This document shows positions 2,986 through 60,944 of a stretch of 64,000 bases of DNA, piece by piece. The stretch is taken from assembly GCA_012961925.1 (NCBI GenBank), contig DTYK01000230.1:797-64796 (forward strand). The letters are read 5' to 3'. Both the position numbers and the translations under genes were made by a program. Under the pieces are notes generated by a model that did no database searches, was not told the origin of the DNA, and saw only the letters and a program-made list of their open reading frames with translations. The stretch comes from Candidatus Latescibacterota bacterium (lineage in GTDB: Bacteria > Latescibacterota > MVCY01 > DTYK01). Every line of letters begins with the position of its first letter. Position 1 is the stretch's first letter.

Positions 2986-3933
2986 TTAGGGTTTAGTATT
3001 CAATATTTCGGCAGCAGCTTTCACATCGGCCTCTATCTGTCTGGCCAGATCCCTTTCTTTCATGAATCTTATCTCGTCCCTTAACCTAGCAACTATCCGA
3101 ACATCGATTTGCAAACCATATAGATCGCCGTTGAACTCGAGCAGATGGACTTCGATCGATTGTGGCCCTTCTCCAAAACTGGGGTGTTTGCCTATGTTCA
3201 TCACACCTGCCCTACGTCCTTCCGGGAGGATTACCCACACGGCATAAACACCGTCACGGGGGATGAGTTTTCTTGAATGGTTCACTTTCAAATTTGCGGT
3301 CGGGAAGCCCAATCTTCTGCCGATACCTTTACCACCACCAACAAAGGCCGTCAGTGAATAGTTGCGGCCCAACAGTTCAGATGCCTTCTCGATTTCCCCC
3401 TGGGCTATAAGGTTTCTTATCCGTGTGCTGCTTACCGGTTGGCCCGCGATAAAGACGGGCGGAACAACAATTACTTCAAAGCCCACTCGTTTGCCGACGA
3501 GTTCTAAATCCTGTGGAACCCCCCTGCGTCCCTTACCGAAGGCATGGTTGTACCCGACAACAAGTTCCTTTACGCCAATCTTGTCAATCAATACTTTTTC
3601 AACGAACTCTTCTGGTTCGGACTTTGAGAATTCCAGGGTAAAGGGATGGACAACTGCGGCATGAATGCCATGAAGGGCAAATAACTTCAATTTCTCCTCT
3701 TTGGTCGTCAGAAGCGGTGGGGCTGTATCCGGGGCAATCACCTGCTGAGGATGCGGGTCAAAGGTGAGGACAACAGCAGTACCCCCCTTTGCTGTGGCTC
3801 TACTTGCAACCTCCTTCAGAACAGAAGAATGACCCATATGAACTCCATCGAAGGTACCTACGCTCACCACCGGGTAGAAACCAAGATCTCCTATTTTCTC
3901 AATATTTTCTATCGTCCTCATTGTAAAACACAC
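2986..3933 (-). CDS. ribF: bifunctional riboflavin kinase / FMN adenylyltransferase
   Basis: [10 protein letters not shown] nucleotidyltransferase motif at the N-terminus and a C-terminal riboflavin kinase domain. Conserved truB-ribF-rpsO context. Confidence 0.9.
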
Positions 3934-4832
3934 ACGGGTCGCATCATATTCTGCGCAAGGTCAAGCTTGGCGACGCCTAACAGGTGACCTTCGCTATTCC
4001 TCACCCTAACTGTCGTCGCTCCATCAAAGGTAGTGGATAGCTTCAAAGCACCACCGTGTTTGAATCTGTCAGCCTCATCCGGATTGAGCTTCACATATGG
4101 AAATCTCTTCAGAGCATCATCAATAGACATGATGTTTGGAGCAAGATCACCTGCCTTTGCGAGAACCGTAATGTCCTCGACGCTTAGGGCTCTATCGATT
4201 GTGAACTCCCCTGACCTAACCCGACGTAGACCCGATAGGTGGCCCCCACACCCCAATTTCCCACCTATATCTGCTGCTAAGGTCCTTATATAGGTGCCCC
4301 TTGAGCAGACAACCCTCAGCACCAGTGACGGAGGCTGCCAGTTAACGACTTCTATCTCGTAAATATTGACCCTGCGGGGCGAAGGATGAACAGCTCTACC
4401 CTTTCTGGCCAACTGGTAAAGCCTTTGTCCTCCAATTTTTACCGCTGAGTAAACAGGCGGTATCTGTTCGATCTCGCCTTCAAAGCCTTTACATATTGCC
4501 TTTATTGAATCAAGACTGGTCCAGGGCACCTCAGTTATTTTCTCAACGCGGCCTTCGGCATCCAATGTATCTGTGGAGATACCAAGCCGAATCTCTGCAA
4601 TGTACTCTTTCTGGTTATCATCAAGGAAACGGAGGATCCTGGTGGCCTTCCCTATTAAGATGACAAGCACCCCTGTAGCAGCAGGGTCCAAGGTACCAGT
4701 ATGACCTATCTTTCTGACCCCCAATATGCTACGCAGCTTCGCCACCACATCATGGGAGGTCCAACCGAGTTCTTTATTCACAATCAGGACCCCATCCATA
4801 TTTGATATATCGCTTCCGAAATAAGATACCAT
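3918..4832 (-). CDS. truB: tRNA pseudouridine(55) synthase
   Basis: GHTGTLDPAATGVL catalytic motif; PUA-like C-terminus. Confidence 0.9.
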   Translation of the reverse strand: MVSYFGSDISNMDGVLIVNKELGWTSHDVVAKLRSILGVRKIGHTGTLDPAATGVLVILIGKATRILRFLDDNQKEYIAEIRLGISTDTLDAEGRVEKITEVPWTSLDSIKAICKGFEGEIEQIPPVYSAVKIGGQRLYQLARKGRAVHPSPRRVNIYEIEVVNWQPPSLVLRVVCSRGTYIRTLAADIGGKLGCGGHLSGLRRVRSGEFTIDRALSVEDITVLAKAGDLAPNIMSIDDALKRFPYVKLNPDEADRFKHGGALKLSTTFDGATTVRVRNSEGHLLGVAKLDLAQNMMRPVCVLQ

Positions 4833-9277: not shown

Positions 9278-9367
9278 GCATCCTTCAAAACTTGACATAA
9301 ATTTTAAAATCTTGCTTTATGAAGACGAGTAGTTAAAAGTCATCCCCTCCCAGGGTGATCAGGCTAT

Positions 9368-10003: not shown

Positions 10004-11329
10004 ATGGTTAAAGACAAGGAATACGTGCTAAACGCTGTTAAGGAGAACGACGTGAAGTTCATCAGGTTATGGTTCACGGATGTCCTTGGATTTCTCAAGA
10101 GCTTCGCCATAACAGCAGAAGAGTTGGAGATCGCCTTAGATGAGGGGGTAGGTTTTGATGGTTCTTCTATCGAGGGTTTTGCAAGGATAGAGGAGAGCGA
10201 CATGATCGCCATGCCCGATCCAACTACTTTCCAGATCCTTCCATGGAGGCCTAAAGAGCAGGCTGTTGCCAGGATGTTCGCTGATATCTTAGAGCCGGAC
10301 GGCAGACCGTTTGAAGGCGATCCACGATATGTACTGAAAAAGATCCTTCAGCGTGCCAGAGAGATGGGCTTCACTTATTACCTTGGCCCTGAGCTCGAGT
10401 ATTTCTACTTCAAGACATCTGATGGGACAGAGATCCTGGATAAGGGAGGCTATTTCGATCTCACTCCGCCTAACCTTGCCCAGGATTTAAGGCGTGAGAC
10501 GATCTTTGCGTTGGAAAGCCTGGGCATTCCGGTTGAATGCAGCCACCATGAGGTTGCGCCATCTCAGCATGAGATCGACCTCCAGTATGCAGATGCGCTC
10601 ACAATGGCAGATAATGTCATGACCTATCGGCTTGTGGTAAAGGAGATTGCTCAACAGAAAGGTTTTTACGCTACCTTCATGCCGAAGCCCATATTTGGCG
10701 TGAACGGAAGTGGCATGCATGTGCACCAATCCCTTTACAAAGACGGCAAGAACGCCTTCTTTGACCATGACGATGTCTACCACCTCTCCCAGATGGGAAA
10801 ATCTTTCATTGCTGGTCTGCTGAAACATGCAAGGGAGATAACCTCGGTCACCAACCAGTGGGTGAACTCCTATAAGCGTCTCGTACTGGGATATGAAGCA
10901 CCCGTATACATCTCCTGGGCCCAGAGGAACAGATCGGCCTTGGTGAGGGTGCCTCTATATAAACCCGGCAAGGAGGGGGCGACTAGGATTGAGTTCAGGT
11001 CTCCGGACCCGGCCTGCAACCCCTACCTTGCCTTCTCAGTGATGCTGGCCGCAGGGCTGGAGGGAATAGAAAGGGGTTACGAACTGCCTGAACCCGTAAC
11101 AAACAACATATTCGAGATGACCGAGGAAGAAAGGGAGATGGCGGGGATAGACTCCTTACCCGAAAATCTGCTGGAGGCAATCAGGTTGACCGAAAGAAGT
11201 GAATTGGTAAAGAGGGTATTGGGCGAAAAAGTGTTTACGTACTTCATCAGGAACAAAAAAGCCGAGTGGGAGGAGTATAAGTCCCAGGTAACACAGTATG
11301 AGCTCGATAGATACCTGTCGATACTTTAA
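10004..11329 (+). CDS. glnA: glutamine synthetase type I
   Basis: 441-aa protein starting MVKDKEYVLNAVKENDVKFIRLWFTDVLG, with GS catalytic motifs (..MHVHQSL.., ..NRSALVRVP..). Confidence 0.95.
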   Translation: MVKDKEYVLNAVKENDVKFIRLWFTDVLGFLKSFAITAEELEIALDEGVGFDGSSIEGFARIEESDMIAMPDPTTFQILPWRPKEQAVARMFADILEPDGRPFEGDPRYVLKKILQRAREMGFTYYLGPELEYFYFKTSDGTEILDKGGYFDLTPPNLAQDLRRETIFALESLGIPVECSHHEVAPSQHEIDLQYADALTMADNVMTYRLVVKEIAQQKGFYATFMPKPIFGVNGSGMHVHQSLYKDGKNAFFDHDDVYHLSQMGKSFIAGLLKHAREITSVTNQWVNSYKRLVLGYEAPVYISWAQRNRSALVRVPLYKPGKEGATRIEFRSPDPACNPYLAFSVMLAAGLEGIERGYELPEPVTNNIFEMTEEEREMAGIDSLPENLLEAIRLTERSELVKRVLGEKVFTYFIRNKKAEWEEYKSQVTQYELDRYLSIL

Positions 11330-16202: not shown

Positions 16203-17708
16203 TCACAGGCGATAGCTTATCTCCCTGATTGCTGGATATATCTGTTTATAAATATGGAACTTCTCCTCGTAGATTTTGTTCTTCTCTCTATCAGGTTCAA
16301 AAGTCCGTTTTACCTTTACGAGGTTACGGACGGCCGAATCAATAGAATCATATGCGCCGATAGCCACCCCTGCCAGTATAGCAGTCCCCAATGCTCCTGC
16401 TTCGGAGACATACAGGGAAGAGACTGGTTTCCCGGTGATATCAGCTTTAAGCTGTATCCACTCGACTGATTTTGCCCCTCCGCCTGTAGCCCTCATGTTG
16501 TCAATTGGCACACCTGATCCTTCGAGTAATTCAACGTTCAACTTCATCTCAAATGTGGTGCCCTCTAAGATCGCCTTTACAATCTCCTCCCTTCTCGTTC
16601 CCAAAGTCAATCCGAGCATGGCACCTTTCGTCTTTGTGTCGAAGTAAGGGGTGCCACTTATTGTAAAATGAGGCAGTATCATCACGCTGGACGGTTTTTC
16701 TGGTAACTTTTCCAGGATAATTTCATAAGGATCTACCCCTCTCTTATTTGCCAGCAACGTCTCTTCCATCGCAAAATTGTCCCTGTACCATCTCAGGAGC
16801 GAACCACCGGTATAGTTGAACGCCACCGTCGTGTATAGTCCAGGGACTACATGGGGATAACACGAGAAGTTGTTTCGAAACATACCTTCGCTGGGTATGG
16901 GCCGATCAAAGGCTGGGGTGATACAATCGGTGGTCCCGGTTCCCCAGGCGGCCATGCGCCCTGTGATAATCCCCGAACCAAGGGCATTGCAGGGCTGATC
17001 ATGCCCTCCTGTAACCACTTCGACTCTATTCGGAAGCCCGAGCTCTTCAGCAACTCCCCTTGATACCCTCCCGATTACTGTGCCGGAGGGTTTCACCTCG
17101 GGCAGGATCTCCTCATCGATCCCTGCGACTTCCAGCAGTTTCTTCGACCACTCCTTTTGTCTGATATCGAAGGCCATGGTCCTGGCTGCGAGGGAGTAGT
17201 CTGTCACAGGGTCCGTACCCAACAGGTAGTAGGTGTATTCTTCAAAGCAGAGAAACTTGTAAAGTCTTCCAAAGACCTTAGGTTCGTTCTCTTTTAGCCA
17301 GATCAGCTTCAGGATCGTGTGCATGGGGTGGAGTGCCATTCCTGAGATATGAAAGGTTTCCTCCGGGGATATCAGTTCCTTCCACCAGATCGCTGTCTCC
17401 CTGGTTCTGGCATCGAAGGAGATCGGAGAGTTATACAGGATCTGGCCATCCCTTGAGAGCGGCACGCCTGCCTCCCCCTGAGCTGACACTGCCAGGGCCC
17501 TGATCGGATCCCTTTTCGTCCTATGGGCCACCTCCGAGATCACCTCTTTAATTGCGGAAGTGACCTGGTAAGGGTCAAGTTCCAGCCAACCCGGCCTGGG
17601 TTCCAGCAACGGATACTCCCGGTAAGCGGAGGTGATGATCTCCCCCTCCAGGCTAAAGGCTACCGCCTTGGTACCTGTCGTCCCCACGTCGATGCCAAGT
17701 AGACTCAT
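16203..17708 (-). CDS. FGGY-family carbohydrate kinase (xylulokinase/L-fuculokinase-like)
   Basis: N-terminal GIDVGTTGTKA and a C-terminal FGGY domain; 501 aa. The substrate cannot be assigned from sequence alone. Confidence 0.75.
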   Translation of the reverse strand: MSLLGIDVGTTGTKAVAFSLEGEIITSAYREYPLLEPRPGWLELDPYQVTSAIKEVISEVAHRTKRDPIRALAVSAQGEAGVPLSRDGQILYNSPISFDARTRETAIWWKELISPEETFHISGMALHPMHTILKLIWLKENEPKVFGRLYKFLCFEEYTYYLLGTDPVTDYSLAARTMAFDIRQKEWSKKLLEVAGIDEEILPEVKPSGTVIGRVSRGVAEELGLPNRVEVVTGGHDQPCNALGSGIITGRMAAWGTGTTDCITPAFDRPIPSEGMFRNNFSCYPHVVPGLYTTVAFNYTGGSLLRWYRDNFAMEETLLANKRGVDPYEIILEKLPEKPSSVMILPHFTISGTPYFDTKTKGAMLGLTLGTRREEIVKAILEGTTFEMKLNVELLEGSGVPIDNMRATGGGAKSVEWIQLKADITGKPVSSLYVSEAGALGTAILAGVAIGAYDSIDSAVRNLVKVKRTFEPDREKNKIYEEKFHIYKQIYPAIREISYRL

Positions 17709-17736: not shown

Positions 17737-18954
17737 CTATTGCGGTTCATCATCGCCCTCCACCAACTCCACCTGGCAGAGGGCACTGCCCTTGTGGAAG
17801 CGTACCCTGACCTGGTCTTTAGGCGCAAGCACTGAGCTATCCCTGACGATCATCATCTCAGGAAGTTTCCTGCAGATGCTGAAACCGCGGCGGAAGGCGG
17901 ATAGCGGGCTCAGTGCATCGAGCATTCCAGTAGCAGCCTTCCAGGCTGAGGTCTTCCCCATCACGAGGCGGTCGAAGGTCCTGAGAAGCCCCCTCTCCAG
18001 TTCATCCACCCTTTGCCAGCGTTGGTTTATGACGTCCGGGAACCTCTGAAAGAGATAGCTGGATCGGAGGTCATTGAGCTCTGCCTCTGCCTCTCGAAGG
18101 CGGTCCTGGACCGCCTTCGTGCACCGCCGGTATAGGAAATCAACCATTTTAAGTAATTCGCCCTTATCTCTCACAGCCAGTTCCGCCGCAGCAGAGGGAG
18201 TGGGTGCCCTTTTATCGGCAACAAAATCGGCTATCGTGAAGTCAATCTCGTGTCCGACGGCGGAAATGATTGGTATTCTTGAACGATATATCGCTCTGGC
18301 GACCGTCTCTTCGTTAAAGGCCCAGAGTTCTTCTATAGATCCACCCCCTCTTCCGACGATGAGAAGATCGGCCTTTTCGTACTCGTTGAACTCATCGATG
18401 GCCATAGCTATCTCTTCAGCGGCACCTTCGCCCTGTACCTTGACAGGACGAAGGATTATTTGGACGCCAGGGAATCTCCTGCCAATGATATTGCAAATAT
18501 CTCTTATAGCAGCACCTGTAGGTGAGGTGATGACGCCTATGATCTCCGGGTATTCAGGGAGAGACCGCTTATGCCGCTCGTCAAAAAGGCCTTCAGTCCT
18601 GAGTCTGTTCTTCAACCGCTCAAAGGCCAGCTGTAACTCGCCAACTCCGGTGGGCTGGAGCTGCCTGACCACAAGCTGATATTGCCCCGACCTCTCATAG
18701 AGAGAGATATCGCCCTGAGCAAGAACCTTCATTCCATTCACAGGCATGAAAAAGAGTCTCCCCGCCTCTGTCCTCCACATAACACATCTGAGTTGACTGG
18801 ATTCGTCCTTCAGTGTGAAATATAAGTGCCCTGAAGAGTGGTGGGTGAAATTGGAGACCTCCCCCTGAACCCAAATGGTGGGGATGCTGGTCTCCAGGAG
18901 CATTTTTATGTGTCTGGTTATCTCTGATACGGTATAGAGCCGGGGCTCAATCAT
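17737..18954 (-). CDS. xseA: exodeoxyribonuclease VII large subunit
   Basis: OB-fold N-terminus (VSEITRHIKMLLE..IWVQGEVSNFTHHSSGHLYFTLKD) and a catalytic domain. Start taken at the ATG at 18954 (MIEPRLY..), just after the ymdB stop. Confidence 0.85.
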   Translation of the reverse strand: MIEPRLYTVSEITRHIKMLLETSIPTIWVQGEVSNFTHHSSGHLYFTLKDESSQLRCVMWRTEAGRLFFMPVNGMKVLAQGDISLYERSGQYQLVVRQLQPTGVGELQLAFERLKNRLRTEGLFDERHKRSLPEYPEIIGVITSPTGAAIRDICNIIGRRFPGVQIILRPVKVQGEGAAEEIAMAIDEFNEYEKADLLIVGRGGGSIEELWAFNEETVARAIYRSRIPIISAVGHEIDFTIADFVADKRAPTPSAAAELAVRDKGELLKMVDFLYRRCTKAVQDRLREAEAELNDLRSSYLFQRFPDVINQRWQRVDELERGLLRTFDRLVMGKTSAWKAATGMLDALSPLSAFRRGFSICRKLPEMMIVRDSSVLAPKDQVRVRFHKGSALCQVELVEGDDEPQ

Positions 18955-18958
18955 AAGG

Positions 18959-19789
18959 CTACTCCCCATCAGAAGGATCGGCTTTCTCTTCAAACTGTCT
19001 TGAGCTATCTGGGTAGTCCATCCGTACCCTCTCGATCTTCCTTGCCTTCCCCGTAGATTCATCAGCCTCGATTAACACACCACAGAGTTTAAGGTTGTTG
19101 GTAGCTGGTCTGAGTTTCACAGGTATCTGCAGAAGGAAACGTCTTATAGCAGCCTCCTTTTGGACACCGATGACCGAGTCGTGTGGACCGGTCATCCCGG
19201 CGTCGGTGATGTAGGCCGTCCCCCCCGGCAAAATCGTTTCGTCACAGGTCTGGACATGGGTGTGCGTTCCTATCACCGCTGTCACCTTGCCATTTAGGTA
19301 CCAGCCAAGGGCCATCTTTTCAGAGGTTGCCTCCGCATGAAAATCAACTATAATTATGTTGGTTACCTCCCTCAGTTTTTCTATCTCCCTTTGGCCGACC
19401 CGGAAGGGGCAGTCGAGTTCCCTGATATAGGTTCTGCCTTGAAGGTTCAATACGCCAACCAATGTACCGGATTTTGTCTGGAATATCACAGAACCTTTAC
19501 CCTCAACCCCAGGAGGGTAGTTTGCAGGGCGGATCAGATATTCCGCCCTCTCTATGTAGGGGAGTGCATCCTTTTTGTCCCACACATGGTTGCCACTTGT
19601 AATTACGTGGACTCCATACGTGTGGATCTTCTCGGCTATCTTCTCCGTAATACCCGTTCCTCCTGCCGCATTCTCTCCGTTTGCTATGCACAATTCCACA
19701 TCGTATCTTTTGATCAGATGAGGAATAAGTTCAGCGGCTATTCGTCTACCCGGTCTGCCGCAGATGTCGGCTACAAAGAGTATGTTCAC
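18959..19789 (-). CDS. ymdB: YmdB-family metallophosphoesterase (2',3'-cyclic nucleotide phosphodiesterase)
   Basis: Sequence MNILFVADICGRPGRR...GNHVWDKK, the calcineurin-like YmdB family. The conserved rny-ymdB gene pair is present. Confidence 0.85.
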   Translation of the reverse strand: MNILFVADICGRPGRRIAAELIPHLIKRYDVELCIANGENAAGGTGITEKIAEKIHTYGVHVITSGNHVWDKKDALPYIERAEYLIRPANYPPGVEGKGSVIFQTKSGTLVGVLNLQGRTYIRELDCPFRVGQREIEKLREVTNIIIVDFHAEATSEKMALGWYLNGKVTAVIGTHTHVQTCDETILPGGTAYITDAGMTGPHDSVIGVQKEAAIRRFLLQIPVKLRPATNNLKLCGVLIEADESTGKARKIERVRMDYPDSSRQFEEKADPSDGE

Positions 19790-24899: not shown

Positions 24900-24962
24900 C
24901 GTCGCCCTTTAAACCTCATAGTAAAAAGAACCGACAGTCCGAAGCCTTTGCCCCAACCGTCT

Positions 24963-25070
24963 TCGGCTCGCCCCAAGAGTTAACGCTTTAGCATTTCAGC
25001 CTGAGTAAGACAAACCGCTGAAGTCTATCCGTGAATGAAAGCCCAAAGGCTGAACTCCGACTTGCCTTCC
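24963..25070. repeat. copy A of a ~110-nt conserved intergenic element (pheS-pheT spacer)
   Basis: Shares (A/G)GAGTTAA(C/T)GCTTTAGCATTTCA...GAC...ATGAAAG...AACTCC(G/A)ACT(T/C)GCC with copies at 38329-38440 and 44468-44580; compensatory arm changes (see findings). Confidence 0.7.
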
Positions 25071-25072
25071 GC

Positions 25073-26086
25073 TCAGAATTGTTCTACGAACCTCAGGTCA
25101 TTTTCGTAGAAGAGCCTGACATCGTCTATCCCGTATTTTATCATCGCTATTCGTTCAATCCCCATACCGAAAGCAAAGCCGGAATATCTCTCGGCATCAT
25201 ATCCGACCTTTTCGAAGACGTTCGGGTCAACCATTCCTGCGCCGGCGATTTCAAGCCATCCCGTTCCTTCACAGAGCTTGCACCCCTTCCCCTCACAGAC
25301 CACACAGGAGAAGTCGTACTCGACGCTGGGTTCGGTGAATGGGAAAAAATGAGGCCGTAGGCGGACTTTAGCTCCCCTCCCAAGCAATTGGCGGGCAAAT
25401 GTGGTCAACACCCCCTTAAGATCGGCCATCGTCACGTCTGTGTCAACATACAATCCTTCCACCTGATGGAAATTGGGCGAATGAGTGGCGTCGGGCGTAT
25501 CCCTCCGATAACACCGTCCTGCATGAATGATCCGCACAGGCGGTCTCTGTTTCTCCATCACGCGGATCTGTACAGGAGATGTATGAGTCCTCAGGAGCTG
25601 ACCATTCTCCAAGTAGAAGGTATCCTGGATATCGCGAGAAGGATGGTCGGCCGGAGTATTCAGGGCATCGAAGTTATAATACTCCGTCTCCACCTCCGGG
25701 CCATCCACCAGAGAGAAACCCATCCCGTGGAATATATATATGATCTCTTCGGTCACCAGAGTGAGTGGGTGCTTTCTCCCCAAAGGTAACTTTCTACCGG
25801 GCAATGTAACATCGAAGAACGCAGGAGTCCTGCCGGCTTCTCTGGTTTCAAGATCTGAAGAAACCTCTTTAATCTTCTCCAATATCGCTTTCTTCGCTTC
25901 CCCTGCAGCCTTTCCAACGATAGGGCGTTGTTCAGCGGGCATGTCCGCGATCGCCCTGAACATGCGGGTGAGTTGACCCTTTCTACCAAGATACTTGCTC
26001 TTCAACTCGGCCAGGCGCCGGGAATCAGAGCAGGCCTGGAGTTCCTTTATGGCTGATACTTTGATGCTCTCTATCTCTTCGAGCAT
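25073..26086 (-). CDS. pheS: phenylalanine--tRNA ligase alpha subunit
   Basis: 337-aa class II aaRS core with motifs 2/3 (..FHQVEGL.., ..GFAFGMGIERIAM..). Confidence 0.95.
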   Translation of the reverse strand: MLEEIESIKVSAIKELQACSDSRRLAELKSKYLGRKGQLTRMFRAIADMPAEQRPIVGKAAGEAKKAILEKIKEVSSDLETREAGRTPAFFDVTLPGRKLPLGRKHPLTLVTEEIIYIFHGMGFSLVDGPEVETEYYNFDALNTPADHPSRDIQDTFYLENGQLLRTHTSPVQIRVMEKQRPPVRIIHAGRCYRRDTPDATHSPNFHQVEGLYVDTDVTMADLKGVLTTFARQLLGRGAKVRLRPHFFPFTEPSVEYDFSCVVCEGKGCKLCEGTGWLEIAGAGMVDPNVFEKVGYDAERYSGFAFGMGIERIAMIKYGIDDVRLFYENDLRFVEQF

Positions 26087-29269: not shown

Positions 29270-29346
29270 TGGTGGGCGGTACTGGACTTGAACCAGTGAC
29301 CTCTTGCATGTCAAGCAAGCACTCTAACCAACTGAGCTAACCGCCC
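29270..29346 (-). tRNA. tRNA-Val (anticodon GAC), CCA encoded
   Basis: Cloverleaf folded by hand: GGGCGGU/ACCGCCC acceptor stem, D-arm GCUC/GAGU, anticodon stem CUUGC/GCAAG with loop UUGACAU, T-arm ACUGG-UUCAAGU-CCAGU, then ACCA. Confidence 0.9.
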
Positions 29347-38287: not shown

Positions 38288-38328
38288 GCTACATAGAACG
38301 ACCTAATCAAATGCGCATAAACTGCCGC

Positions 38329-38440
38329 AGCTTCGCTCAAGGAGTTTAATGCTTTAGTATTTCATCTTGGGCAAGACAAACCGTTGAGTCTGTACATCTG
38401 AGGATGAAAGTCTAAAGACTTAACTCCGGCTCCATGCGCT
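38329..38440. repeat. copy B of the ~110-nt conserved intergenic element (aminotransferase-hisG spacer)
   Basis: Same element as copy A, with terminal GGAGTT...AACTCC arms and inner TTTCATC/GATGAAA arms. Confidence 0.7.
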
Positions 38441-38463
38441 TTTCAATCCAAACCCGTGGTTCT

Positions 38464-39660
38464 TCACCTCTGAAGTTTCTTGAGTCCTTCCTCGATCCTG
38501 TCCATCGCTTTCTCGATGTTCTCCAGCGAAGTGGCGTAAGAAAGTCTGATGTTAGTATCCATCCCAAATCCAGCCCCTGGCACACAGGCGACCTTCATCT
38601 CATCAAGCAGAAACTCGCAGAAATCCACGGAATCTTCTATCCTTTTACCCTTGTGAAAAAAACCATAATAGGACGAAACATCCGGAAAAACATAGAAGGC
38701 CCCCTGTGGCACAGGACAAGAGATGCCTTCGATGGAATTGAGCCTGTCAACTATATATCTCCTCCGCCTGTCGAAGGCCTCTATCATTGCGCCGACGCTA
38801 TCCTGCGGTCCGGTAAGAGCTTCAAGGGCTGCCATCTGAGCTATAGAACAGGAGTTGGACGTCTCCTGGCTCTGGATCTTCCCCATCGCCGATATTACAG
38901 CTTCCGGGCCAGCAGCGTACCCTATCCTCCACCCTGTCATTGAATAAGACTTTGACACTCCGTTCACGACCACCGTCCGCTCCACCATACCTTCTACAAG
39001 CGAGGCAATGCTACAGTGTCTTGCACCATCATAGATGATCTTCTCATAGATCTCGTCTGAGAGTACATATATACCAGCCTCCAACACAACTTCCGCCAGA
39101 GCTGCAAGCTCGTCCCTGGTATAGACGATCCCACTCGGATTCGAGGGGCTGTTTAAGATCAGAAGTTTGGTCCGCGAGGTCAGGGCACTCCTCAGATCTT
39201 GAGGTGAAACCTTCAGCCCGTTTTCCTTCGTAGGAGTGAGAACTACCGGATTGCCCCCTGCGATCCTAACCTGCTCCGGATAGCTGACCCAGTATGGCCG
39301 GGGGATTATGACCTCGTCACCTTCATCTACCAAGGCGAGGATTGCAAGGTAGATCGAATGCTTTCCACCACAACTGACAATCACCTGAGACGGATCATAT
39401 GCCAGGCCATTATCCCTTTCGAACTTTTTGCATATCGCCTTCCTCAGTTCTAATATCCCTGTGGCGGGTGTATATTTTGTGAATCCCTGATTTATAGCCC
39501 TTATTGCGGCATCCTTGATGTTCTGCGGTGTGTCAAAGTCTGGTTCTCCAGCACTCAATGATACAACATCGATGCCCTCTGCCAACATCGCCTTCGCCCT
39601 GGCAGTGATGGCAAGGGTCACCGAAGGTTTTATCCGCTGGATATTTCTGGAGATCAACAT
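38464..39660 (-). CDS. aspartate/aromatic aminotransferase (class I)
   Basis: 398-aa protein with AAT_I fold, ..SKSYSMTGWRIGY.. PLP-Lys region. Confidence 0.8.
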   Translation of the reverse strand: MLISRNIQRIKPSVTLAITARAKAMLAEGIDVVSLSAGEPDFDTPQNIKDAAIRAINQGFTKYTPATGILELRKAICKKFERDNGLAYDPSQVIVSCGGKHSIYLAILALVDEGDEVIIPRPYWVSYPEQVRIAGGNPVVLTPTKENGLKVSPQDLRSALTSRTKLLILNSPSNPSGIVYTRDELAALAEVVLEAGIYVLSDEIYEKIIYDGARHCSIASLVEGMVERTVVVNGVSKSYSMTGWRIGYAAGPEAVISAMGKIQSQETSNSCSIAQMAALEALTGPQDSVGAMIEAFDRRRRYIVDRLNSIEGISCPVPQGAFYVFPDVSSYYGFFHKGKRIEDSVDFCEFLLDEMKVACVPGAGFGMDTNIRLSYATSLENIEKAMDRIEEGLKKLQR

Positions 39661-39677
39661 CCCATTTCCCCCGTCGC

Positions 39678-40805
39678 TTACAGCCAGCCAGTCAGTTCCG
39701 CCAGCAATTTTGAATATTCGACGTAATCAGGCCATGATATGTCGGGTGGGACCCCGTGATCGCATCCGGGGATGAATCCTCCATCTTTCAATAGGGGAGG
39801 TACTACTCGCATGACTTCCCTCTCCATGGCCCGTCCACCCTTGGCAAGGGCACGTTTATCAATGCCGCCGATATATGCCATCCTGTTCCCATATCTCTTC
39901 CGATACTCGACGATGTCGTTGCCAGCGGCGACCTCCACAGGCTGGCAGCAGTTGATCCCTGCCTCTATCCAGATAGGGATCAGTTCACCGATGTAACCGT
40001 CCGAATCCATCGAAACCAGAGGACAACCGCTTGCCTTGATCTCTGAAACCCAGCGATCGTATGTTGGCAGTAAAAACTGCCGGACCATCCTCGGTGAGAT
40101 CATGCTGTGGCCCTTGTAGGCCATGTCCTCCGAAATACATACGCTGTCCACCTCGACCTTTTCAAGGATAGGCGCCATCGTCCGGGAGACGAACCCGGCC
40201 CAGAAATCGATCATCTCTTGTACAAAATCAGGATCATCCATCATCAACATGCAGAGGTTTTCGAAGCCACACCATTCCCGGAGCTGCCAGAAAGGTCCAT
40301 TAAAACCAAAACTCACCACATAATCTCGGTTCTTCAACCTCTCGCATCGCTGCTCAAAATCCTCCGGGTAGCGCCCAGGCGCCTTTGGATCGAAACGTCT
40401 TTTCATCTCCTCCCAGTCCTTGTGGTTCTCTACCGGGAACTTGTGCCACTTCCGGGTCACGAAATCCTTAGCCGAACGGATGTAGGTGTAGTCGTATTGG
40501 TCTGAGATCTCAGTGATGGCCCCCATCCAGTCCTGCACCACGTAATGTCCATCCCTGTGTTCAAGCACCTTCTCCTCAAATTTGGGAATCATCTGAAACG
40601 ATACGCCCAGATCGACCCTCGGCTCCTGAGGTTCCTGTTCTATGCCGAGGATGTCAAGCAGGGCCTCGTAATAGCTTGCTCCTTCGGGAAGCCCCTGCTG
40701 GTGCCATGTCGCCAGGGTGGATTCTCTCGGGCCCCCAGGAGAAAAGGGTATCTTATCAGGTTTACCAAAAAGGAGTGTTTCCCGATACCGCTCCCTCTTA
40801 TTCAT
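39678..40805 (-). CDS. uroporphyrinogen decarboxylase (URO-D) family protein of unknown function
   Basis: 375 aa with a URO-D/MtaA-like TIM-barrel pattern. It lies inside a pentose/pentitol catabolic array. Confidence 0.6.
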   Translation of the reverse strand: MNKRERYRETLLFGKPDKIPFSPGGPRESTLATWHQQGLPEGASYYEALLDILGIEQEPQEPRVDLGVSFQMIPKFEEKVLEHRDGHYVVQDWMGAITEISDQYDYTYIRSAKDFVTRKWHKFPVENHKDWEEMKRRFDPKAPGRYPEDFEQRCERLKNRDYVVSFGFNGPFWQLREWCGFENLCMLMMDDPDFVQEMIDFWAGFVSRTMAPILEKVEVDSVCISEDMAYKGHSMISPRMVRQFLLPTYDRWVSEIKASGCPLVSMDSDGYIGELIPIWIEAGINCCQPVEVAAGNDIVEYRKRYGNRMAYIGGIDKRALAKGGRAMEREVMRVVPPLLKDGGFIPGCDHGVPPDISWPDYVEYSKLLAELTGWL

Positions 40806-41485
40806 CTGACCCCCTCCATCTTTTCCTGTCCGTATCTATGGTGGTACCGATCCCACCATTTCTCGATCTCATCCGGCGATAATTCATCGGGCTTCCCCCT
40901 CAGGAGAGTGAGGTAGACGGTCTTTGCTACGTCTTCCACCATCACCGCTGCCTTCAAGGCAGCAGATGGAGAAGGACCAAAGGTAAAGACCCCATGATTC
41001 TTCAAGAGTACGGCCGGGCCTCTATTCATCGCACGGACGACGGCCCTCCCTATGTTGTCCGCCTCGTTACTTGCATATTCCGCACACGGGATCTCTCCGC
41101 CAAATTCATCCGCTATAGCCGTCAGATAGGGTCTGATAGGCTGCCCCAATGCCGCAAAGCTCGTGGCATAGTTCGAATGTGTATGAACAATACCGTTTAT
41201 CCCGGATTTATGACGATAAATGTAAAGATGATTGGGCAGATCTACTGACGGGCGGAAGACGCCTTCAAGGGCATTCCCATCAAGATCAACAACCACCAGA
41301 TCCTCAGGCTTCATCTCCTCAAATCTCACACCGCTTGGCTTGATGACTACGTAATTGGTCTCCGGATCTCGGCCACTCACATTGCCGCTTGTCATGGTCA
41401 CCAGTCCCTGTCTCGGCAATTCCTGGTTCATCCGCCATACTTCCTGCCGTAGCCTTTCCAACATGATCAGATCCTCCCTTGACAA
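40802..41485 (-). CDS. araD: L-ribulose-5-phosphate 4-epimerase (class II aldolase family)
   Basis: Sequence LVTMTSGNVSGRDPETNYVVIKPSGV...NGIVHTHSNYAT...IPCAEY, which matches E. coli AraD motif by motif. Confidence 0.8.
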   Translation of the reverse strand: MSREDLIMLERLRQEVWRMNQELPRQGLVTMTSGNVSGRDPETNYVVIKPSGVRFEEMKPEDLVVVDLDGNALEGVFRPSVDLPNHLYIYRHKSGINGIVHTHSNYATSFAALGQPIRPYLTAIADEFGGEIPCAEYASNEADNIGRAVVRAMNRGPAVLLKNHGVFTFGPSPSAALKAAVMVEDVAKTVYLTLLRGKPDELSPDEIEKWWDRYHHRYGQEKMEGVR

Positions 41486-41493
41486 CCTTTCAC

Positions 41494-43170
41494 CTATCTT
41501 GTCACCTCCGCCCTGATCCTCTTTAGCCTCTTCATCACATCGTTTTCGCCGCGTCCGAAGTAATCATGCAATCTGGCATATTCCCCAAATAGTTCCTCAT
41601 ATATCCTTTTGTTCTCCGGGATGGGGATGAACTTCTCGTCCTTGATCCTCGCCATCCTCCGTGCTGCCTCGAAGATATCGTCATACCCGCCATTCTCACT
41701 TCCTGCGGCCACAGCCCCGAACATTGCAGAGCCGAAGGCGGAGGTCTGAGGGGAAGCCGCGAGCTTTATCTCCCTTCCCGTGACATCGGCGAAGATCTGC
41801 ATCACCAGCTTATTCCTTTCAGGCAATCCCCCGCACGCATATATCTCATCAACCGCCACACCCGAGTCCTCAAAGGCCTTTATGATCATCCGCGTGCCAT
41901 AAGCAGTAGATTCGATAAGCGCACGGTAGATCTCTTCAGGACGAGTATTGAGCGTACAACCCATGAGAAATCCCATGAGATCAGCATCCACCAGCACCGA
42001 CCTGTTTCCATTCCACCAGTCCAGGGCCAACAGACCTGTCTCTCCTGGCTTGAGCCTGGAGGCCTTCTCCTCCAAGAGGGCATGAAGGTCGATGTCCCTC
42101 CGTTCTGCTTCTTCATGGTACTCCGGAGGGACACATGCCTTTAGAAACCACGCATAAATGTCTCCCACCGCAGATTGTCCTGCTTCGAAGCCGATGAAGC
42201 CGGGCAGGATACCGTCCTCCACGGCTCCACACATACCTTCTACGGTCTTCCTCTCCCTCCCCAATACCATATGGCAGATGGAGGTCCCCATTATCATAAC
42301 CATCTTACCCGGCTCCGTCACAGTAGCGGCGGGCACGGCAACATGTGCATCCACGTTGCCAACTGCCACGGATGTCCCAGGCTTAAGACCTGTCAGCCGG
42401 GCCATTTCTGGAGTGAGACCGCCTGCCTTCGTGCCAAGAGGGTATATGTCAGTCGAAAGTTTCTCCTCAACTACGTTCTCAAACCCTGGATGCACTGACC
42501 GGAAATAATCCCTGCTCGGATAACCATGTTTTTTATCCCATATCGCCTTGTAGCCCGCTGTGCAGAGGTTACGTCTTTCATTGCCTGTGAGCTGGAGTAC
42601 GATCCAATCTGCCCCTTCAATCATCCTGTCCGCAGCCTCATATATCTCCGGGGCTTCGTTCAGTATCTGGAGGATCTTCGGGAAAAACCACTCCGACGAG
42701 ATCTTTCCCCCATACCTCAAGAGGAATTTCTCCCCCCTCTCTCTAGCCACCTGATTTACCCTGTCAGCCTCCGGCTGGGCCGCATGGTGTTTCCACAGCT
42801 TCACCCAGGCGTGGGGATTACCTTTGTACTGATTCAACATACACAAAGGGGTGCCCCCTTTATCTATAGGCATCATCGTACACGATGTGAAATCTATCCC
42901 CAGGCCGACCACACATTCAGGATTAATCCCCGCCTGCTCGATCACAGCCGGTATTGTGGTCTTCAGTACCTCAATGTAATCGGCTGGATTTTGGAGCGCC
43001 CAGTCCGGTTCCAACTGGGTACTTCCGTCCGGCAGCACTCGGTCTATAACTCCATCTTTATAGTGATGCACGGATGTGCCAACCTCCTCACCCGTCTCCA
43101 CGTCCACGAGAACAGTTCGGCCTGACTCCGTACCGAAGTCTATGCCTATGGAGTATCTTTTGCCATACAT
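41494..43170 (-). CDS. araB: ribulokinase
   Basis: 558-aa FGGY kinase; [31 protein letters not shown] parallels the E. coli AraB region. Confidence 0.85.
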
Positions 43171-43248
43171 CTGTTACCAAGTCCTCCTTTCATGGAGATA
43201 TTTTGCTGATACAATGTGACATCTATACGAAAAGGGCAAAAACCTTCT

Positions 43249-44280
43249 TCAAATCCTGATGACAGCTTTAACTACTCCATCACCGTAGCTCTCGACTAAA
43301 TGAAAGGCGGATACTATCTCTTCAAGAGAGAACTCATGAGTAACCAGAGATTTAACATCGACCAACCTCTTCTCAACCAACCTGATGGCCCTGGGATAGG
43401 TATGTCTCATCCTCCTAACCAGCTTGATGGTAATCCCCTTACGACGGGCAGAAGAGGCACTTAAATGGATACTATCCTCGGAAGAGATACCTATGAGGAC
43501 CACCCTGCCCCCGGGCTTCACTATATCCACTGCCTGCTGGGGCGTTTCTACCACGCCGGCCGCTTCAAAGACCACATCTACACCTCTATTACCAGTTGCA
43601 TCCGTTATCCTTCTCACCGGGTCTTCAACAGCAGCGTTAATCACCAGGGAGGCACCGAAATGTTCCGCCCAACTGAGCCTATCCCGAAGCAGATCCGTAG
43701 CATATATCTCAGCCGCTCCTGTCAACCTGACGAGCTGGATTACCGAGAGCCCGATCGAACCAGAACCCAGTACGGCTACTGTCTCCGCGGGCTTAACCTT
43801 ACCGAGATCTACAGCATGAAGGCTCACGGCCAGAGGTTCTATCATTGCCCCTTCAGCAAGGCTCAAGCCTCCTGGTAGTGGAAAAACGAAGTCCGAAGGG
43901 TAGGGTATCTGCTCCCTGTAGCAGCCGTCAACCGGCGGAGTGCCGCAGAACTTCATACTTTTACATAGGTTATAGTTCCCTTCACGGCATGCCTCACAGA
44001 CACGGCAGGGCACCCCTGGTTCGACACAGACGGGAACCCCGGGCTCTAATCCATCCACCCTCTTCCCCACCTCTTCTACCACACCGGCGAATTCATGCCC
44101 AAGGATGATAGGTTTAGTAACGACAGCGTCTCCTATCCTACCGTATCTGAAGTAATGAACATCAGACCTGCAGACACCAGCAGCTTTTACCCTGATCAGG
44201 ACCTCGCCATCTCTGATCCCTGGCGGCTTGGCGTCTTCAATACGCAGGTCCCCTGGACGATACAGTCTGGCAACTCGCAT
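43249..44280 (-). CDS. Zn-dependent polyol dehydrogenase (sorbitol/xylitol/arabinitol dehydrogenase family, MDR)
   Basis: Catalytic Zn ligands (GVCRSDVHY, GHEFAG), a structural Zn motif CRVCEACREGNYNLC, and a Rossmann GSGSIG. Confidence 0.75.
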   Translation of the reverse strand: MRVARLYRPGDLRIEDAKPPGIRDGEVLIRVKAAGVCRSDVHYFRYGRIGDAVVTKPIILGHEFAGVVEEVGKRVDGLEPGVPVCVEPGVPCRVCEACREGNYNLCKSMKFCGTPPVDGCYREQIPYPSDFVFPLPGGLSLAEGAMIEPLAVSLHAVDLGKVKPAETVAVLGSGSIGLSVIQLVRLTGAAEIYATDLLRDRLSWAEHFGASLVINAAVEDPVRRITDATGNRGVDVVFEAAGVVETPQQAVDIVKPGGRVVLIGISSEDSIHLSASSARRKGITIKLVRRMRHTYPRAIRLVEKRLVDVKSLVTHEFSLEEIVSAFHLVESYGDGVVKAVIRI

Positions 44281-44387: not shown

Positions 44388-44426
44388 TTCGAATGTTTTT
44401 CAGTGTTCAATTTCCCGGATTTAGCA
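44388..44426. repeat. copy 2 of a ~40-nt conserved motif (CGAATG-TTTTTCAGTGTTCAATTTCC-CGGATTTAG)
   Basis: Aligns with 16089-16131 and 59052-59092. Confidence 0.5.
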
Positions 44427-44431
44427 CTTTC

Positions 44432-44452
44432 GGTCGGGGGTAAACCCCGACC
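44432..44452. promoter_or_regulatory. GC-rich hairpin GGTCGGGG-GTAAA-CCCCGACC
   Basis: Perfect 8-bp stem read directly, in the rplS-dehydrogenase spacer between the two repeat elements. Confidence 0.35.
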
Positions 44453-44467
44453 CTACCTCCGTTTTCA

Positions 44468-44580
44468 GCTCACCCCAGGAGTTAATGCTTTAGCATTTCA
44501 TCCTATGTAAGACGTACCCCCGAGCCTGTAGAGCGGGGGATGAAAGGCTGAAGTTTGAACTCCAACTCGCCCTCCCTTTC
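44468..44580. repeat. copy C of the ~110-nt conserved intergenic element (rplS-dehydrogenase spacer)
   Basis: Same conserved termini as copies A and B. The variable core forms its own hairpin, CCCCCG-agcctgtagag-CGGGGG. Confidence 0.7.
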
Positions 44581-44693
44581 GATCAGAGGCGCCTGAAAAC
44601 GGCCGTTCCGTTTGCCGGACGGTCATAACGGCTCAGGCTTAAGTGCACCTCATCCTCCACTACGCCAAACGGGTACAGCACCTTTTGAGGTAG

Positions 44694-60872: not shown

Positions 60873-60944
60873 ATTGGTGACCCTTACAAGGTAAGATATT
60901 AAAATCCATGTCAAGTTTTGAAGGGAGGAGAGTGAAGTAAGAAG

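Follow-up and report, generated by a model that had tools for sequence, protein, structure and literature searches.

Three homologous copies of a ~120-nt intergenic repeat, designated A, B and C, were found in the 64-kb stretch of DNA analyzed here (64,000 nucleotides, referred to below as the window), all in one orientation (minus) and all between minus-strand genes. To judge from their similarity, the three copies demonstrably descend from a single ancestral ~120-bp sequence. On balance, we think that they represent an old, low-copy, lineage-specific family of non-coding, imperfectly palindromic intergenic repeats of the ERIC/Correia/RUP/YPAL class, a reading that we hold with some, but far from full, confidence. 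A repeat or MITE-like origin is favored over a regulatory RNA because significant covariation is lacking, the hairpin is about equally good on both strands, the stems are the conserved part and the element is absent from three relatives. The whole units and the structures associated with them are as follows:

24957-25078, minus strand: copy A, whole unit (covariance model R1, 125 bits; nhmmer 24961-25074)
24976-25058, either strand: hairpin core of copy A (83 nt), the most degenerate of the three
24933-24961, minus strand: second hairpin just 3′ of copy A, GACGGUUGGGGC AAAG GCUUCGGACUGUC (sense), from the fold of the whole spacer
38322-38447, minus strand: copy B, whole unit (covariance model R1, 134.6 bits; nhmmer 38326-38444)
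38341-38427, either strand: hairpin core of copy B (87 nt), the long hairpin being the minimum free energy (MFE) structure on both strands
44459-44583, minus strand: copy C, whole unit (covariance model R1, 138.7 bits; nhmmer 44464-44580)
44478-44563, either strand: hairpin core of copy C (86 nt), better on the plus strand
44593-44602, minus strand: 5′ arm of an outer stem, CCGUUUUCAG (sense), copy C only, in the MFE and centroid structures of the whole spacer and read from the sequence
44432-44452, minus strand: second hairpin just 3′ of copy C, GGUCGGGG UUUA CCCCCGACC (sense), from the fold; it has no U-tract and received no terminator call

The original prediction had placed homologous elements in these three spacers, and nhmmer, the covariance model and blastn agree on all of them. 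Pairwise blastn within the 64-kb window gave 74-75% identity over 105-117 nt, with E values of 8e-15 to 3e-18 (A vs. C, 74.4% over 117 nt, E 3e-18; B vs. A and C, 74.3-74.8%, E 8e-15). A three-copy nhmmer profile run on the window matched A, B and C only, and the next best match of the unfiltered covariance model reached just 12.6 bits (E 0.2). The unit is ~115-135 nt long. Its divergence is star-like, all pairwise identities falling between 72 and 76% (~25% apart), and the similarity of B to C does not exceed that of either to A. Chance similarity, or spacer that is simply drifting, would be compatible with the small copy number alone; it is refuted by pairwise E values of 1e-15 to 1e-18 in 64 kb and by the fact that this is the sole sizeable repeat family in the window, apart from one 37-nt pair. 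The view that these are a structured RNA or a REP/MITE-like element rather than drifting spacer is thus borne out by similarity far beyond chance, by a long hairpin in every copy and by stems that are more conserved than the rest. The two members of the 37-nt pair (9282-9318 and 60888-60924) are 86% complementary on the plus strand and hence have the same orientation relative to their local genes; they lie in the rimP-nusA spacer and in a substrate-binding-protein-permease spacer (opp-like operon), and both end in GTTTTGAAGG just before the start of the downstream gene.

All three copies lie within 20 kb, and no further copy was found in the ~78 kb made up of the window and ~14 kb of edge extensions. 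Exact split-motif scans returned 35 loci from a genome contig collection, all attributable to chance (nhmmer E of at least 0.014), and 42 from a metagenome contig collection, likewise all chance (none with nhmmer E≤0.01). The window's own copies were among neither set, showing that these collections lack the source genome, and both scans are uninformative on copy number. Viral contigs scanned with two 3′-end patterns gave 0 matches, blastn of a plasmid collection found nothing similar, and blastn of a phage collection gave a single 29-nt chance match (E 0.4). The same contig was recovered in ENA ERZ23486261, JGI 3300013797, 3300005745 and 3300009429, and two Logan runs. These assemblies represent one strain, with copies A and C identical throughout, and a search for strain variants or near relatives through exact L19 and Zn-ADH proteins returned the same strain only. 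Looking for paralogues of an NHL-repeat protein brought up nothing from the source genome. The contigs of six or seven assemblies pass unbroken through A and C, and only one contig (Logan contig L101, at ~38368) ends inside B, which argues against near-identical recent copies elsewhere.

The genes flanking the copies are those named in the original prediction: PheS and PheT for copy A, a class I/II aminotransferase and HisG for copy B, and L19 and a Zn-ADH for copy C, all on the minus strand. The unit of copy A, between thrS-infC-rpmI-rplT-pheS and pheT, starts directly at the stop codon of pheS (TGA, 25073-25075). Copy B begins ~17 nt past the aminotransferase stop codon, between a run of genes for Zn-ADH, FGGY kinase, aldolase, a UroD-like protein and the aminotransferase on one side and hisG-hisD on the other. 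Copy C begins ~110 nt past the rplS stop codon, in a 413-nt spacer between rpsP-rimM-trmD-rplS and the Zn-ADH gene. The genes downstream of the copies (pheT, hisG and the Zn-ADH sugar operon) are functionally unrelated. There is no reading frame common to A, B and C: where A and C remain open, B runs into a stop after 5 codons. A small ORF in copy C (an SD-like GGGAGGG followed by TTG) was rejected on the ground that its frames are not conserved. The source genome also has three FGGY-family carbohydrate kinase genes in ~80 kb (16203-17708 and 41494-43170 in the window and 17856-19400 on the extension contig L088), which suggests an expanded sugar-kinase family.

Scans of both strands detected no sigma-70-like promoter at any copy, with a consensus that may not be this phylum's, and the consensus scan for intrinsic terminators was negative at every copy and on either strand. 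The Bacteroidetes-type promoter motif TAnnTTTG is absent from the element by inspection. At the gathering threshold, Rfam 15 recognized only a tRNA in the whole window (29273-29346, minus strand, upstream of thrS; 72 bits), and this position is also a breakpoint of the JGI contigs from two samples. At E≤10 the copies themselves attracted just generic long-hairpin miRNA models, at 15-18 bits vs. thresholds of 64-104. The Rfam scan foreseen in the original prediction therefore gave no hit to a known family, and its view that the element is not recognizable as a named one holds at either cut-off. A small RNA gene, transcribed in sense or antisense from its own promoter and ending in its own terminator, would suit a stable intergenic hairpin, the more so as no other fold is as strong as that of C in antisense; the missing promoter and terminator, the missing Rfam match and the position of copy A, which abuts the pheS stop codon, make such a gene very unlikely.

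Read in the sense direction, each copy consists of GGAGUU, a variable stretch of 9-11 nt, CUUUCAUCC, an apex of ~35 nt, GGAUGAAAU, GCUAAAGCAUU and AACUCC. The inverted-repeat arms are ~26 nt long (21/26 matched in copy C) and make 21-23 pairs. They are internal to a slightly longer conserved unit, with non-palindromic extensions outside the hairpin of ~15-20 nt on the 5′ side (GAUCGAAAGG...GCGAGUY) and ~19 nt on the 3′ side (UGGGGYGAGCYGAARACGG). The GC content of the element is 0.44-0.53, vs. 0.51 for the window. Two pairing models were scored, each on both strands: a single long hairpin (23 pairs) and a four-way junction (21 pairs) with the local hairpins AGCC-UUUG-GGCU and AUGC-UAAA-GCAU. 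Paired cells amounted to 90-94% in all four models, compared to 30-57% when the 3′ partner was slid by 1-3 columns, and this difference indicates that the palindrome is real in every copy. On either strand, the scores of the junction and of the long hairpin were nearly equal. Variable positions made up 9/46 stem columns vs. 21/41 unpaired columns (Fisher p=0.003). Conservation thus resides in the stem sequences and not in loops or junctions, the unpaired columns being the most variable.

The individual arms described in the original prediction are present: GGAGTT/AACTCC as outer arms and TTTCAT/ATGAAA as inner arms in all three copies, a G-U in the outer arms of copy A that exists only in the minus (sense) reading, and the CCCCCG/CGGGGG hairpin in the core of copy C. 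The written consensus fits A and C, but not B, which has an extra T, GTA for GCA, GCAAGAC and the right flank GGCTCCATGCGC. What had been described as a variable core, different in each copy, can be aligned across A, B and C; it represents the apex of a single hairpin, where constraint is weaker, rather than an exchanged cassette. Nor do the inner arms co-vary as proposed. In register, B equals C in arm sequence and A differs by a T.C mismatch and a G-U; the pair put forward for copy A, TTTCAGCC/GGCTGAA, makes use of a different, out-of-register segment (GGCTGAA at 25048-25054). In the long-hairpin model, 15/23 pairs are invariant, and a double substitution occurs at only one, which reads C-G in A and U-A in B and is mismatched in sense C. 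The core variation said to be compensatory comes down to this one double change, and shuffles equaled the observed double-change values in 85-190/500 trials. The covariation test suggested at the outset thus returned nothing significant, on three sequences and with correspondingly low power. The hairpin is accordingly kept because the arm sequences are conserved, without demonstrable compensatory change, and the argument for a structured RNA from compensatory variation does not hold.

The isolated cores fold better than shuffled sequence on both strands (z -1.8 to -4.8), as expected of an inverted repeat at the DNA level. Core A forms the long hairpin in sense (MFE -24.0 kcal/mol, z -2.05) and a different structure in antisense (-18.6 kcal/mol, z -1.77), while core B is similar on the two strands (z -4.55 sense, -4.37 antisense). 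Core C is considerably more stable on the plus strand, i.e. in antisense (-36.2 kcal/mol, z -4.75, vs. -25.8 kcal/mol, z -2.67, in sense), because two A.C mismatches become G-U there. Together with its flanks, copy A folds no better than shuffles (z -0.1 and +0.4; whole spacer z -0.8), and the long hairpin is not the MFE structure of the full spacer. Over the alignment, 94.2% of cells are paired in sense vs. 89.9% in antisense, and five G-U cells are sense-only vs. two that are antisense-only. The strand evidence therefore conflicts, A being better as sense and C 10 kcal/mol better as antisense.

Some structures extend beyond the repeat itself. In copy C, the arm at 44593-44602 pairs with the repeat's 3′ extension CUGAAAACGG (44459-44468) to form a 10-bp outer stem around the whole element, and in both B and C extra outer pairings of unrelated sequence lengthen the hairpin. 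The hairpin at 24933-24961, which adjoins copy A on the 3′ side, has a U-run behind it (GGUUCUUUUUAC, 24921-24932), ~25 nt before pheT. This hairpin contains four G-U pairs and is therefore predicted to form in sense RNA only; by its folded form it resembles a terminator, though the consensus terminator scan did not flag it. The hairpins at 24933-24961 and 44432-44452 are possibly homologous. An intrinsic terminator was rejected as the identity of the repeat itself, as the scan is negative and the only U-run is at the separate hairpin after copy A.

These features bear on a different explanation, namely a cis-acting structured RNA selected in the sense transcript and maintained by selection rather than mobility. 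Such an RNA would either control intercistronic processing or stability, as a site for RNase III or RNase Y or as an obstacle to 3′ exonucleases, or serve as an attenuator of pheT, hisG and the dehydrogenase operon. We gave it more weight than we otherwise would have because all three copies are sense to their flanking genes, the hairpin after A depends on G-U pairs and has a U-run, and B and C have outer pairings of unrelated sequence. The slightly higher pairing and greater number of G-U cells in sense, the second GC-rich hairpin that follows both A and C, the conserved stems and the presence of the RNase Y and PNPase genes in the same window point the same way. However, covariation is limited to one double change and is not significant, C folds far better in antisense, A barely folds in its spacer, and it is the stems and not the loops or junctions that are conserved. 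Moreover, the downstream genes have no common function, the pheS-pheT spacers of relatives lack the element (see below), and three copies would share the same orientation by chance with a probability of 0.25. We therefore regard a selected sense RNA as a possible but rather unlikely account. The narrower idea of a riboswitch or leader-type cis-regulatory RNA is not supported: there is neither significant covariation, at the low power of three sequences, nor a conserved unpaired core, the element is absent from the orthologous pheS-pheT position, and its downstream genes form no coherent regulon.

The nearest relatives, as measured by PheS, are 72%, 70% and 64% identical. No similarity to the element was detected in the pheS-pheT spacers of L082, L084 or L103 with nhmmer or the unfiltered covariance model, and no copy was found in 44 kb from these three relatives. 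Neutral DNA is beyond alignment at 64-72% PheS identity, so all that this absence excludes is deep conservation as an RNA; it does not establish a recent insertion. The spacers are unrelated in sequence across the four Latescibacteria lineages, with lengths of 173 nt here (24900-25072), 185 nt in L082 (11033-11217), 202 nt in L084 (4369-4570) and 217 nt in L103 (5012-5228).

The pheS-pheT spacer is unusually long in all four lineages and strongly structured in 3/4: that of L084 (GCA_030608245.1) has a different, nearly perfect 100-nt hairpin at 4409-4506 (z -4.9) and that of L103 a z of -2.9, while that of L082 is unstructured. A T-run occurs 30-60 nt before pheT in each. In the window it takes the form of the hairpin 24933-24961 plus a GGTTCTTTTTAC tail, which as modeled looks like a terminator or attenuator. 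L084 also has a ~110-nt repeat of its own in its thrS-infC and rplT-pheS spacers (1804-1911, 3217-3311). This repeat and the hairpin indicate that lineage-specific structured repeats in operon spacers recur in the clade. In the same genome, an 8-nt unit (CCCTAYGA) is repeated 11 times in tandem between ymdB and xseA (10465-10587). One could imagine that the Latescibacteria have domesticated a sense intercistronic module, consisting of the long hairpin (plus the second hairpin in A and C), that is cleaved by, or forms a decay barrier to, RNase III, RNase Y or PNPase and so sets different expression levels on its two sides, with each lineage having its own sequence version. Such versions would explain why the spacers of four lineages are 173-217 nt long, mostly structured and yet unrelated in sequence; we nevertheless consider this scenario unlikely.

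Copies B and C are direct repeats around a ~6-kb block (38464-44280) encoding Zn-ADH, an FGGY kinase, a class II aldolase, a UroD-like protein and an aminotransferase, which is wedged between the rplS and his operons and is not anomalous in GC content or skew. At 44394-44424, 35-65 nt downstream of copy C and beside the hairpin GGTCGGGGGTAAACCCCGACC (44432-44452), there is a break in four independent assemblies (JGI 3300005745 and 3300009429; Logan SRR8626128 and SRR26701722), with the next contig overlapping by ~31 nt; two long assemblies continue across this point. The break might reflect a short repeat, reduced coverage at the hairpin or a junction between strains. The repeat could in principle be a binding or recombination site at the DNA level, for a nucleoid protein, recombinase or transposase, with B and C bordering a mobilized sugar-catabolism cassette. 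Conservation of the arm sequences on both strands, the direct repeats around the block, the breaks close to C and the contig end in B would all be in keeping with this. It is nonetheless improbable: B and C are no closer to each other than to A, the base composition of the cassette is ordinary, the break is not in the element but next to a strong GC hairpin, two long assemblies pass across it, and there is no recombinase nearby.

Several known element types were also considered as identities and rejected. An integron attC site is incompatible with the ends of the unit, which are GGAGTTAAY and TGAACTCC and not RYYYAAC/GTTRRRY core sites, and with its housekeeping flanking genes. Hammerhead- or twister-type ribozymes, a T-box and a group II intron domain were ruled out by the sequence together with the Rfam results.

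We thus return to an interspersed stem-loop repeat as the preferred explanation. An old burst of non-autonomous transposition or recombination may have spread the unit into spacers that tolerate insertion. Copies A and B, at least, are probably transcribed within polycistronic mRNAs, where the hairpin would form, since the genes on either side of them are co-directional and neither a terminator nor a promoter is predicted in between. An interrupted helix of 21-23 bp could plausibly be cleaved by a double-strand-specific RNase or hold up 3′ exonucleases, and any effect might consist of mRNA processing or of a differential stability of the upstream and downstream cistrons, by analogy with NEMIS and ERIC/REP. 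Ligand sensing or a trans-acting RNA would not be part of the role of such a repeat. Of the two alternatives offered in the original prediction, then, the REP/MITE-like one is the better supported; the specific argument for a structured RNA does not hold, given the lack of significant covariation, a hairpin that is about equal on both strands, conservation in the stems and relatives without the element.

The best flank matches over nine offsets (6/11, 5/12 and 7/11) give no significant target-site duplication. The hairpin flanks are weakly alike (GGCGAGTT / GGTGAGCT in C) and are also similar between copies, and so are more likely to be part of the repeat unit than a target duplication. The termini (GGAGTT...AACTCC) have no TA, the element is not A+T-rich, and neither a transposase nor an IS with matching ends (GGAGTTAATGCTTTAGCATTTCATCC) was found in the window and its extensions. 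By the look of its ends and composition, the element is not a canonical TA-targeting MITE: of the MITE features given by Delihas (2008), it has a length of <200 bp, lack of coding capacity and inverted repeats folding into a long stem-loop, and lacks 5′-TA-3′ termini and A+T-richness. Also counting against a repeat family are the occurrence of just three copies in ~78 kb, all within 20 kb, their uniform sense orientation and the G-U-dependent hairpin after A. The last two hint at a constraint at the RNA level, which would be superfluous for a purely selfish DNA element.

Should the family be confirmed across the genome, it would be the first of interspersed stem-loop repeats described in uncultured Latescibacteria (WS3). 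It could then be of use as a marker for strain typing or assembly, and might be among the determinants of mRNA processing in operons. The family opens no new kind of biology, and the long, structured, lineage-specific pheS-pheT spacer is the more interesting thread.

Families of this sort are common in bacteria. Cozzuto et al. (2008) described 92 stem-loop sequence (SLS) families in 29/40 genomes. Two thirds of the families are intergenic and have a fold in common; many are lineage-specific and previously undescribed, and comparable families exist in most bacterial genomes that have been systematically examined (PMC2267715). Our copies, as repeated intergenic sequences with a shared predicted stem-loop, resemble this class, to which membership is by description only and which carries no mechanism.

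REP/BIME sequences are intergenic, often between genes of one operon, and transcribed, and their hairpins shield upstream mRNA from 3′ exonucleases. The element is likewise intergenic and lies between co-directional genes; its 83-87-nt hairpin starting with GGAG, with no RAYT seen, is unlike the 20-40 bp palindrome with a GTAG/CGTC head, and a REP/BIME identity was rejected. REPs are characterized in PMC3733652 as 20-40 bp sequences with a GTAG or CGTC head that are linked to RAYT transposases.

The ERIC/IRU element is a non-coding, imperfect palindrome of 127 bp found in transcribed spacers, including inside operons, with old and diverged copies and an orientation-dependent effect on the stability of flanking cistrons (PMC2229807). 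Our repeat is similar to ERIC in size, in its long stem-loop palindrome, in being non-coding and intergenic and in the divergence of its copies, but has no sequence similarity to it. The TA termini, target-site duplications, occurrence in both orientations and tens to hundreds of copies that are features of ERIC have not been seen here either.

Correia elements generate a duplication of their TA target, can contain IHF sites as well as ends that resemble promoters, and number hundreds of copies, whereas the present element has neither TA nor a clear duplication. In Neisseria, the Correia/NEMIS elements (~105-155 bp) have arms of ~24-26 bp, are co-transcribed with their neighbors and form an arm hairpin that is an RNase III substrate (PMC2229807). 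Their arm length is comparable to ours (~26 nt), and NEMIS would be the mechanistic model by analogy. For NEMIS such an effect on cleavage or decay has been demonstrated; for ERIC and REP it has been deduced (PMC2229807). The same review supplies the defining features of the class and the precedents with RNase III and RNase E.

The YPAL/RU-2 element of Yersinia (168 bp) is not A+T-rich, has no terminal TA, contains internal inverted repeats with asymmetric extensions and inserts beside regions of dyad symmetry (PMC2229807). YPAL makes target duplications of 3-26 bp and has filled vs. empty sites between species. In comparable fashion, our element extends 15-20 nt beyond the hairpin in conserved sequence, and copies A and C are neighbored by GC hairpins. 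With its lack of TA termini, of A+T-richness and of a clear target duplication, the repeat finds its closest analogue in YPAL.
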